Source: a virus (taxonomy: Duplodnaviria; Heunggongvirae; Uroviricota; Caudoviricetes). From it: 40,878 nt of DNA. The stretch lies in IMG/VR virus record IMGVR_UViG_2541047787_000006, positions 1 through 40,878 of that record, one strand, 5' to 3'. The position numbers were made by a program, and so were the translations under genes. Shown here piece after piece: positions 32,091 through 34,808 of this stretch. Numbering within the stretch: position 1 is the stretch's first letter; each line of letters starts with the position of its first letter. The notes beneath the pieces are model-generated. The model ran no database searches and was not told the DNA's origin. It saw only the letters and a list, made by a program, of their open reading frames with translations.

Positions 32091-32151
32091 CTTTACCCTC
32101 GCTTATCCACATAACTTATTGATTACATTGATAACTAAAAAGATCGTCGAT

Positions 32152-32613: not shown

Positions 32614-33414
32614 TTACTTGATAAATCCTGACGCCTTTCCCCGCCTGTATTCCTCCATCAGCCACTGCGCCGGTGTTATTCCCCCCAGGGTGGCGGCGTT
32701 AGGCATACACCCGAAACTTCGCCCTGGTGGATGGTAAACGTCTCTCCCTGTGTCCGGAGGCGTACTCATGGGTTCTGGCTTTGCCTGTATGCTGATCACC
32801 GGATCGGGTATCTGCTGTCCGGAAGCCACCTTTTTCGCCCAATCATCGAGCAGCCTGCGCGCGTGTTTCTCAACCTCAATCTCGCTAAGCTGGCGCTGAT
32901 ACATTGCACGGCGGGTATCACATACGACCCAGTACATAACCGGATGCCGCCACGGGAATCTTTCGGGACCACCAGGATATAAACTTTTTTCCTTGCTGTA
33001 CCGGTGAAACTCCGTCATCACATCGTCAATGGTGACGCCAAGAACCATCTTGCTGTCTTTACACCACTTGATAAATTGCCCTGGCGACGGCCAGAACGGA
33101 GATTCACTGGCGCGGGCGTGGCGCATACCAGCAGAAACCTGTTCACGGGTTCGGATCCCCCCTTCGGCAAACGCAGCAATCCACTGCTGTTTTGCAGCAA
33201 CTTCCTGCTCTGGCGTCTTCAGGTTGGTTACCACTGCCGCCGGAAACAGTTGTTTCAGCTGTTTGAAAAGGGCATCAACAAGCCTCTCTGCTGACATGTT
33301 CACCACATTGTCATTGTTGGTGTACTGATGCTCATAACCTGACATGCGAGAAAGGGCTTCTCCGTCACGGTTTTGTATCGCGGTAAAAACGTTGTTCACA
33401 AGAAATCCTCCCAT
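32614..33414 (-). CDS. Replication protein P-like (helicase loader)
   Basis: QWIAAFAEGGIRTREQVSAGMRHARASESPFWPSPGQFIKWC closely parallels the lambda P motif RQWVLAFRENGITTMEQVNAGMRVARRQNRPFLPSPGQFVAWC. Confidence 0.8.
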   Translation of the reverse strand: MGGFLVNNVFTAIQNRDGEALSRMSGYEHQYTNNDNVVNMSAERLVDALFKQLKQLFPAAVVTNLKTPEQEVAAKQQWIAAFAEGGIRTREQVSAGMRHARASESPFWPSPGQFIKWCKDSKMVLGVTIDDVMTEFHRYSKEKSLYPGGPERFPWRHPVMYWVVCDTRRAMYQRQLSEIEVEKHARRLLDDWAKKVASGQQIPDPVISIQAKPEPMSTPPDTGRDVYHPPGRSFGCMPNAATLGGITPAQWLMEEYRRGKASGFIK

Positions 33415-34211
33415 GCTTCAGGGCTGTTCCAGTGCGGAACGTTGTTATCAGGTAATGTTGATTGCTTCTGTCTGCTAATCTGCAGCCGCCTTGCCAGCTT
33501 CTGCTCCCACTGTGCCTGATGGTATGCCTTACCCTCAGCCATCCAGTAAATTCTGAACTCTGCAAGTTCCTGTGCCGTTGGCAGACTGTCCAGGTAGATC
33601 CCCTGCAATGAGCTTTTCCGAAGAAAGTCATCTGATGGCTGCCATTGTTCATGCATGACAAATTTGCCTAATTGCCCTGGCCCACCAGGAGGAACAAAGT
33701 TATTCATCACGGCGTTGTTTGCACCGGGGTCATGAGGCACAGAATCCCCGCTTTTTGTCCTGCTCTCCCTCTCTTGGTTAAATGACTGGTTATATGACTG
33801 GTTCTGGATCCCGTTTTTGGGATCATTCAACATCCCGTTTTTGGGATCATTCAACATCCCGTTTTTGGGTATATTCCCGTTTTCGGTAACATTACCGTTT
33901 TCGGGTTCATTGCCCCCCTCCCGGTTGCCTTTAATGTTCCCGTTTTTGGTTATATTAAGAGAGAAAACCCGCACTCTTTTTGTCGCTCCCTTTCTCTCTC
34001 CGGTATCTGAAATAAGCCCCATTTTCATGAGCGATATAAGCCCGGCCTGCACGGTTTTTTTATTCAGGCAAGTGTCTTTAACGAGGCGTTCTATGCTGGG
34101 GTAGCAGAGGTTATATTCATCGGCTCTGTCAGCTATCGAGAGCAGTATGAGCTTTAATGATGAGCTACCTGGATCTGTCTCCCAGGCCCAATCTGTTGCA
34201 TGTCTGCTCAT
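33396..34211 (-). CDS. Replication initiator, O-like winged-helix N-terminus, with iterons inside the gene
   Basis: N-terminal LKLILLSIADRADEYNLCYPSIERLVKD..GLI winged-helix pattern; internal repeated NG..N peptide encoded by the iteron DNA. Confidence 0.7.
   Translation of the reverse strand: MSRHATDWAWETDPGSSSLKLILLSIADRADEYNLCYPSIERLVKDTCLNKKTVQAGLISLMKMGLISDTGERKGATKRVRVFSLNITKNGNIKGNREGGNEPENGNVTENGNIPKNGMLNDPKNGMLNDPKNGIQNQSYNQSFNQERESRTKSGDSVPHDPGANNAVMNNFVPPGGPGQLGKFVMHEQWQPSDDFLRKSSLQGIYLDSLPTAQELAEFRIYWMAEGKAYHQAQWEQKLARRLQISRQKQSTLPDNNVPHWNSPEAWEDFL
33808..33956. repeat. Iteron array (candidate replication origin) inside the O-like gene
   Basis: About six copies of (T/A)(T/A)CCCGTTTT(T/C)GG; the first three have an exact 24-bp period, two of them identical ATCCCGTTTTTGGGATCATTCAAC. 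Confidence 0.7.
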
Positions 34212-34577: not shown

Positions 34578-34808
34578 TCATGAGTAGAAGAAGTATGCCA
34601 GTTCTGCTTTTGAGCGCAGCCATTGTCTTGATTTACAGGCTTTAAAAAGCCCATTCATCAATACCTTACCTGGCATTTTGCGCTTACCTGTTAAGTGAGT
34701 CTGGATATAGTGACTCGTCGTTCCGGCTTCCTGTGCGAAGGCTTCACGCTCATCCGGAGTAAGTGCAAGCCAGTGCTTTTTGAAATCGAAATGTCCGTTA
34801 TCGCTCAT
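34578..34808 (-). CDS. Cro-like HTH protein (YdaS/Cro-type)
   Basis: 76 aa; HTH-like segment LTPDEREAFAQEAGTTSHYIQTHLTGKR; divergent from the repressor gene across an operator-rich intergenic region. Confidence 0.6.
   Translation of the reverse strand: MSDNGHFDFKKHWLALTPDEREAFAQEAGTTSHYIQTHLTGKRKMPGKVLMNGLFKACKSRQWLRSKAELAYFFYS

Follow-up and report, generated by a model that had tools for sequence, protein, structure and literature searches.

The window examined here, a 40,878-nucleotide stretch of viral DNA (IMG/VR record IMGVR_UViG_2541047787_000006, positions 1 to 40,878), belongs to a phiV10-like Uetakevirus and contains a cluster of direct repeats (iterons) inside the gene for its replication initiator protein. 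We believe that the region at about 33750-33955, which comprises the iterons, a set of (G/T)AACC 12-mers and a purine run, is probably a replication origin of the lambda type. The six iterons, each of them a dyad, are very probably sites (as yet putative) that are bound by dimers of the winged-helix N-terminal domain (‘N-domain’) encoded by the same gene. We read the array as an origin from the clustering of the repeat cores, their dyad symmetry, the layout of the protein's domains, conservation among homologues, co-variation between the protein and its presumed sites, the swapping of modules between systems and the presence of a P gene, all of which are features of sequence. A first-pass annotation of the window had proposed a likely origin at this locus, and our analysis supports that interpretation. 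It also identifies three departures from lambda: the initiator is an HTH_36 protein, its C-terminal domain (‘C-domain’) is of the DnaT type, and where a pronounced AT-rich tract would be expected there is instead a second, conserved repeat element.

The core sequence CCGTTTTYGG is present six times in the window, with all copies located between 33811 and 33949 (+ strand), compared to a mean of 0.14 copies and a maximum of 1 in dinucleotide-preserving shuffles. The count of six given in the first-pass annotation was therefore confirmed both by a repeat finder and by comparison with chance expectation. The start-to-start spacings returned by the repeat finder were 24, 24, 18, 18 and 45 bp in + strand order (45, 18, 18, 24 and 24 bp on the coding (-) strand), in agreement with the 24-bp intervals that had been claimed for the first three copies. 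Tandem Repeats Finder reported four arrays in the whole window, three of them at the iteron locus, and a search for the full 16-mer that tolerated as many as three mismatches found no copy in the window outside that locus.

The complete iteron unit is a 16-bp dyad, ATCCC-N6-GGGAT, of which the window contains two perfect copies (ATCCCAAAAACGGGAT on the - strand); three of the six copies have imperfect arms. The core sequence proposed previously describes the five copies that contain CCCG and fails to describe the remaining one (33892-33907), which has ACCG. Similarly, the start of the array had been placed correctly at 33808, while its end requires adjustment from 33956 to 33952, the last position covered by the 16-mers. 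All six copies lie within the 271-residue open reading frame (ORF) at 33396-34211 (-), and because their spacings are all multiples of three they encode a repeated NG-type peptide (...KNGN/ENGN/PKNGMLND..., residues 87-135), as had also been pointed out in the first-pass annotation. The coordinates of these and other features are collected in Table 1.

Table 1. Features of the candidate origin and of its surroundings (window coordinates)
Feature	Position	Strand	Sequence, basis or remark
Initiator gene, 271 residues	33396-34211	-	ORF list, Pfam, PHROG, AlphaFold2
Iteron 1	33937-33952	-	TAACCAAAAACGGGAA; first in gene orientation, farthest from second element
Iteron 2	33892-33907	-	AACCCGAAAACGGTAA; ACCG core; resembles phi80 iteron TTCCCGAAAACGGGAA
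Iteron 3	33874-33889	-	TTACCGAAAACGGGAA
Iteron 4	33856-33871	-	TACCCAAAAACGGGAT
Iteron 5	33832-33847	-	ATCCCAAAAACGGGAT; 5-bp dyad arms perfect
Iteron 6	33808-33823	-	ATCCCAAAAACGGGAT; last in gene orientation, adjoins second element
Second repeat element	33775-33804	-	GAACCAGTCATAT-AACCAGTCATTT-AACC, i.e. (G/T)AACC three times at 12-bp spacing
Purine run	33751-33775	- (coding)	AAGAGAGGGAGAGCAGGACAAAAAG; 23 of 25 bases are purines
Lambda-P-family helicase-loader gene	32614-33414	-	Pfam Phage_lambda_P (PF06992) 1.5e-56; phrog_109 ‘P-like helicase loader’ 6.6e-92
Cro-like gene	34578-34808	-	phrog_35 match
Promoter-like site	34862-34834	-	Consensus scan only
Terminator-like hairpin	34556-34537	-	Consensus scan only; phiV10 has a terminator annotated at the equivalent place

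The repeats also cast a ‘shadow’ on the opposite strand in the form of a 95-residue antisense ORF (33817-34104, +; MGSFNIPFLGSFNIPFLG…), the counterpart of which in phage YDC107_2 carries the label ‘putative membrane protein’. That record also has an initiator gene broken by single-base changes in A-runs, which are probably sequencing errors.

Bioinformatic analyses indicated that the initiator contains an N-terminal match to the Pfam family HTH_36 (PF13730; residues 18-67, 1.9e-10, 40.8 bits with a cut-off of 25) and a C-terminal match to the DnaT C-terminal domain (PF17948; residues 184-252, nt 33456-33662, 1.2e-15, 57.4 bits with a cut-off of 25). The C-domain also matches the DnaT C-terminal domain entries 9zbt, 6aep and 4ou6 in the PDB, with E values from 6e-21 to 4e-20. 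The best PHROG match of the protein is phrog_1032, ‘replication initiation protein’ (5e-108), and no match was found in it to the Pfam families Phage_rep_O (PF04492), Rep_3 or relatives of the latter. An AlphaFold2 model, built on an alignment of 36 sequences, comprises a winged-helix N-domain (residues 1-86, nt 33954-34211; predicted local distance difference test (pLDDT) score above 88 over residues 1-90), a disordered linker of roughly 120 residues (pLDDT below 50 over residues 91-210) and a helical C-domain (residues 213-251; pLDDT 76-88 over residues 211-250). The model thus contains a single winged helix-turn-helix (wHTH) domain followed by disorder, and the iterons and the second element are located in a part of the protein for which no structure is predicted. 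A Foldseek search of the model against the PDB returned generic winged-helix regulators and weak matches to the N-domains of staphylococcal plasmid Rep proteins (best E = 4e-3).

An array of in-frame units in a linker of this kind could in principle have arisen by expansion of tandem repeats within disordered, NG-rich protein, being kept or tolerated as peptide without any function as DNA. The window itself is compatible with such an origin of the repeats: its six copies, all in one frame, specify PKNG/ENGN-type peptides, disorder is predicted for the region, copy number changes freely by 18 or 24 bp, and the cores display no significant excess of conservation over the spacers among close relatives (see below). 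We nevertheless consider it very improbable in light of a diverse set of 80 genomic homologues of the N-domain (40-86% identity), drawn from Vibrio, Acinetobacter, Pseudoalteromonas, Marinomonas, Providencia, Sulfuricella, Burkholderiaceae, Desulfovibrionaceae, Sphingomonadales and others. An exact 8-mer that is repeated at least three times within 260 nt was observed in 57 of the 72 full-length genes of this set, as opposed to 4 of 360 shuffles, with the first copy located at a median of nt 300 of the gene. In 47 of those 57 arrays the copies occupy two or three reading frames and so encode unrelated peptides; the successive copies of CCCAAAAACGG in a Vibrio salinus prophage, for example, are translated as SPKNG, IPKTE and PSQKR. 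Spacings divisible by three account for 67 of 155, and values of 17, 22, 25, 41, 46 and 56 bp are common. Expansion at the level of the peptide is further opposed by the dyad symmetry of the units, by the co-variation of their arms with a residue of the recognition helix (described below) and by the iterons of lambda, which are likewise spaced at 20, 24 and 23 bp.

The dyad pattern itself, NNNCC-(AT-rich N6)-GGNNN, reaches a density of 12.6 per kb between nt 241 and 620 of the homologous genes, versus 1.0 per kb over the remainder of the loci. At least three such sites are found at the equivalent position in 73 of 76 loci of distant N-domain homologues; the absence of the repeats from homologous genes, which the first-pass annotation had regarded as evidence against an origin, is thus not what is observed, and nearly all of these homologues carry an array of their own. 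Across loci the dyad has the consensus GTCCCAAAAACGGGAC, and in 92% of oriented sites it is the coding strand that is rich in A. Since the arrays of the homologues mostly run in more than one frame, the conserved object is the DNA rather than the peptide. A profile search with the N-domain yielded mostly truncated fragments and was used only for alignment depth. Many database proteins of the initiator family are fragments of 90-175 residues from short contigs that appear, from their length, to end a little past the N-domain of about 86 residues and so near the iteron-encoded stretch, possibly because assemblies or gene calls break at the repeat array.

The dyads might alternatively act in the messenger RNA (mRNA), as hairpins affecting translation or stability of the initiator-P transcript, or as weak antisense terminators. 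Consistent with that idea, the segment 33745-33965 (-) folds better than its shuffled counterparts (z = -2.7, with 1 of 200 shuffles as good), and a terminator scan picked out hairpin-plus-T-run shapes on the + strand at 33818-33837 and 33842-33861. Such an excess of structure is, however, expected from closely spaced palindromic protein sites; the stems measure only 3-6 bp, three of the six copies have imperfect arms, the Rfam scan matched no relevant family, and pairing of RNA gives no account of arms that co-vary with a protein residue. We therefore regard a role in RNA as extremely unlikely. Each of the two terminator-like shapes pairs the right arm of an iteron with the left arm of the following one in a 6-bp hairpin, after which comes TTTTT; both are probably incidental.

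The identity of the protein that reads the repeats is suggested by residue 51 of the N-domain (nt 34059-34061), which stands at the beginning of the recognition helix and immediately precedes an invariant K52-T53 pair; the outer dinucleotide of the iteron half-sites varies together with this residue. An arginine at this position is accompanied by GT in 46 of 48 genes, a glutamate by CC in 4 of 5, a valine or isoleucine by CA in 7 of 9 and a lysine by AT in 4 of 8, where the counts ignore shared ancestry and each class spans several genera. The window combines K51 with ATCCC arms. Residue 51 appears from these pairings to be a candidate determinant of iteron specificity, and the same pairings suggest that the N-domain is the putative iteron-binding domain.

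All 73 homologues examined for domain content contain an HTH_36 match, and they differ in what follows it: seven have a DnaT C-domain, five Phg_2220_C and two DnaA_N, with the rest unclassified. Conversely, no such array was found in the Uetakeviruses SPN1S and Tyrion, which share only the DnaT domain with the window and have another N-domain. Across these genomes the array accompanies the N-domain rather than the C-domain, and the C-domains are interchangeable. This pattern suggests a cassette of N-domain plus iterons that has been joined to varied C-domains, the latter being exchangeable modules for recruitment of the helicase or of its loader. The corresponding gene of Salmonella phage SPN1S (1048-2328) encodes the DnaT-domain replication protein with the different N-domain; no iteron array was found in SPN1S and no P-family gene after that gene, and its arrangement of origin and loader must therefore differ from that of the window.

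The ‘replication protein O’ of the Edwardsiella phage GF-2 (phrog_391) has an N-domain that is 50% identical to that of the window over residues 1-140, and its gene carries a similar array (ATCCCAAAATTGGGAT three times at 24 bp) followed by a GAAYC element, with a P gene downstream. The C-domain of GF-2 and the distal part of its origin (…TCCGAGAATTCTGACG…), in contrast, are of the lambda/phi80 type. By sequence comparison the GF-2 initiator is a natural hybrid of the window-type and lambda/phi80-type systems.

The second repeat element begins exactly 3 nt beyond the last iteron, and was scored by Tandem Repeats Finder as 2.4 copies of period 12; phiV10 has a third 12-mer. Chains of GAAYC units spaced 10-14 bp apart are found in the homologous genes as well: 65 of 77 genes have two units or more (40 of 1540 shuffles) and 49 of 77 have three or more (0 of 1540 shuffles). 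The chain starts exactly 3 nt past the last iteron in 58 of 75 genes. Its units are usually separated by 12 and then 13 bp, or the reverse, and are consequently read in two frames. The second element is thus a feature of the DNA, held in fixed register with the array, and it could account for the ‘QNxS…EPxxEP’-type peptides that follow the N-domain in homologues. Its place corresponds to that of the AT-rich unwinding tract in lambda, and we consider it a candidate unwinding element or second binding element, and a likely site of duplex opening or of single-strand capture. The possibility that the GAAYC units are degenerate iteron half-sites was dropped, since agreement at 2-4 of 5-6 bases is too poor a match. 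The purine run beyond the second element occupies the position of the purine-rich AT tract in oriλ, and the interval 33750-33999 displays a strong AT skew. In many homologues the chain is followed by an A-run, AAAAATAAAAAA, which the window does not have.

The first-pass annotation had described the arrangement as lambda-type, and in repeat placement, polarity and the presence of a P gene downstream it does match both oriλ and the origin of phi80. In lambda as in the window, direct dyad repeats are found in the middle of the initiator gene, between the segments for the N- and C-terminal domains; the units share a format of CCC, A-rich centre and GGG (lambda ATCCCTCAAAACGAGGGAT, window ATCCCAAAAACGGGAT); the A-rich strand is the coding strand, with a stretch rich in purines on the promoter-distal side; a P-family gene is next downstream, and cro-like and repressor genes form the upstream context. 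The lambda O gene contains four annotated iterons near its middle (ATCCCTCAAAACGAGGGAA and variants, at the spacings given above) followed by the purine-rich AT tract. The two systems differ in the size and number of units (six of 16 bp in the window, four of 19 bp in lambda), in the C-domain (DnaT-type versus O-type) and in the adjoining DNA, where lambda has a tract of 80% AT that the window lacks and the window has the additional (G/T)AAYC 12-mer element. The phi80 origin, in gene 15 (gp15, gp14), has its array in a similar place and with the same polarity in the gene. Its annotated gp15 sites (TTCCCGAAAACGGGAA and variants), four copies about 21 bp apart, are nearly identical in sequence to iterons 2 and 3 of the window (AACCCGAAAACGGTAA and TTACCGAAAACGGGAA); like those of lambda, the phi80 iterons have been defined by experiment.

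The designation of the window's protein as ‘O-like’ is only partly appropriate. Both lambda O and phi80 gp15 are members of Phage_rep_O (5.7e-36 and 6e-25), unlike the window's initiator, and BLASTP comparison of the latter with the two proteins gave nothing significant. Residues 1-86 alone, on the other hand, match phrog_678 (4e-9) and phrog_345 (1e-6), and residues 1-115 of lambda O match the same two ‘O-like’ families across the same profile regions. These shared, transitive matches suggest that the N-domain of the window may be remotely homologous to that of lambda O; a direct alignment of small N-domain alignments with hhalign returned a probability of only 14%.

Iteron plasmids offer a second comparison. 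Their initiators (TrfA of RK2, RepE of F and RepA of pPS10) are winged-helix proteins that recognize repeated sites, as proposed for the window, and their iterons adjoin 11-13-bp repeats that become single-stranded, one strand of which is contacted by Rep (PMC10602881, PMC4980987). Plasmid origins lie outside the rep gene, however, and Rep consists of two tandem winged-helix domains (WH1-WH2) that bind iterons as monomers, whereas the window combines a single wHTH, dyad sites and an array within the initiator gene. E. coli DnaT, the C-terminal domain of which is homologous to that of the window's initiator and forms a filament on single-stranded DNA (PMC13377028), has an N-domain of its own and is brought to forks by PriA and PriB. 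Tethering of a DnaT-type domain to a sequence-specific wHTH, as in the window, would make that domain origin-specific.

The number of iterons varies among close relatives of the window. In a set of 80 near-identical relatives from IMG/VR, the exact core is present six times in 59 loci and five times in 12, with a range of 3-9 and most counts at 5-9 (the lowest may reflect incomplete loci), and units of both 18 bp and 24 bp have been gained and lost. The initiator proteins in the databases are 263-311 residues long and differ almost only by PKNGMLND units, being about 99% identical elsewhere; phage BP9, for example, has one 24-bp unit fewer. This variation parallels the difference between lambda, with four iterons, and Stx phages, with six, where the extra iterons affect replication (PMC7466680).

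Related initiator genes were also encountered in three records of circular E. coli plasmids. Two of these (NZ_CP079771.1 and NZ_CP079768.1, 41,027 bp, from duck isolates) encode a protein 99.3% identical to the window's initiator by tblastn; their length is that of the phage genome, which was probably assembled in them as a circular episome. The third (NZ_CP148379.1, 8,461 bp) consists of a prophage segment with repressor, cro, YdaT, initiator and P genes together with a few other genes, and it encodes an initiator homologue of 36% identity whose gene has iterons and two GAACC units inside it. Judged by this gene content, and provided that the assembly is correct, the third record may be a naturally occurring equivalent of lambda dv, and would then count as circumstantial evidence that such a module replicates in cis; it may instead be an assembly artefact.

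Several observations weigh against an origin at this locus. A calculation of nearest-neighbour stability did not reveal a marked tract of high AT content or low stability next to the array in the window: the least stable 40-mers of the initiator gene reach z = 2.0 (33928-33968) and z = 1.5 (33769-33809), and the AT content beside the array is 50-60%. The second element is only mildly unstable (z = 1.5), and in this respect the window departs most clearly from lambda. All six copies in the window share one frame, so that the argument for conservation at the level of DNA rests on the homologues, and within about 45 near-identical relatives the proportion of variable sites is not significantly lower in cores than in spacers (6 of 96 versus 6 of 49, p = 0.22, with too little variation overall for such a comparison). 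Shared ancestry, as noted, is ignored in the residue-51 counts. The small plasmid NZ_CP148379.1 derives from a single-cell assembly, and its initiator is a distant homologue. Finally, no published experiment on binding or origin activity for this phage or initiator family was found in the literature searched. The literature on phiV10, epsilon15, Uetakevirus and HTH_36 proteins with iterons or an origin likewise yielded no description of this origin, and a paper on replication regions of non-lambdoid Stx phages mentions neither repeats nor DnaT.

The absence of a strong AT-rich unwinding element beside the array would be easier to understand if the sites for the initiator were mainly regulatory, serving in a roadblock or autorepression of the initiator-P operon, in copy control by handcuffing or in exclusion of related phages, with the origin located elsewhere. 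The evidence for binding (the dyads of distant homologues and the co-variation of residue 51) fits this explanation equally well, and there are parallels in lambdoid systems: good binding in Stx phages is confined to the four iterons closest to the AT-rich tract, with a modulating role for the distal ones (PMC7466680), and plasmids carrying lambda iterons inhibit related phages (PMC3349717). No other repeat cluster or candidate origin was found elsewhere in the 40.9-kb window, however, and the position of the array is that of the proven origins of lambda and phi80. The second element, with its fixed register behind the array and the frequent A-run after it, moreover has the appearance of part of an origin core and not of an operator. 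A mainly regulatory function is for these reasons improbable in our view, although such a role may coexist with function as an origin.

If the region is an origin of the lambda type, several initiator dimers would coat the array to form an O-some-like complex, and the segment next to the array would be destabilised. The tethered DnaT-type C-terminal domains could then act by capture of single-stranded DNA, by contact with the P-like loader or in both ways, and the loader would bring in host DnaB. Transcription from the upstream early promoter may assist, as it does in lambda.

It is also conceivable, though we hold this as a tentative and rather doubtful extension, that the window represents one member of a widespread and undescribed three-part origin module in prophages of Gamma-, Beta-, Alpha- and Deltaproteobacteria. 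The parts of this module would be an HTH_36 domain, its own dyad iterons in the linker and, 3 nt after them, two or three (G/T)AAYC units that are 10-13 bp apart and conserved as DNA. The (G/T)AAYC units would act as a sequence-specific element for unwinding or single-strand capture, comparable to DnaA-trios or plasmid 13-mers, and the interchangeable C-terminal domains would include the DnaT C-terminal domain, the lambda-O C-domain, DnaA_N and Phg_2220_C. Were this so, a cluster of DnaT C-terminal domains templated by the iterons would filament on the exposed strand in phiV10-type phages, amounting to a DnaA-like mechanism built from a domain of the restart primosome.

For the phiV10-type O157/O-antigen-converting phages and many related E. 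coli prophages, the analysis provides a concrete candidate origin, and a known origin position is of use for dv-type vectors, for the reading of marker frequencies and for annotation. The lambda design of an origin inside the initiator gene would then also occur with another Pfam family of initiators, in which the DNA-binding domain and its sites travel as one cassette and the C-terminal recruitment domain is exchanged. Two leads follow: a single residue of the recognition helix apparently sets iteron specificity, and the second element may mark the point of duplex opening.

The initiator gene is 99.8% identical to that of Escherichia phage EC.W1-9 and 97.5% identical to that of phiV10 (genus Uetakevirus). 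Records of this type label its product ‘primosomal protein I’ or ‘replication initiation protein’; no origin or repeat annotation in the gene was present in the public phage records retrieved. The P gene is next downstream on the same strand and overlaps the end of the initiator gene. The longest P ORF does so by 19 nt (33396-33414), while the start annotated in phiV10 gives an overlap of 4 nt, and the true start of P may thus be a few codons further in.

Upstream of the initiator gene and on the same strand are a small gene of unknown function and the cro-like gene, and a repressor gene with two HTH motifs is divergent from them. The promoter-like site and the terminator-like hairpin listed in Table 1, both from consensus scans only, occupy the places of lambda pR and tR1. 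By analogy with transcription from lambda pR, transcription from this early promoter-like site would cross the array. No DnaA boxes were found near the array, and the number of DnaA boxes in the window is at chance level; a single perfect box (TTATCCACA) is present at 32103-32111 (+), 1.7 kb from the array and near the end of a DUF1064 gene.

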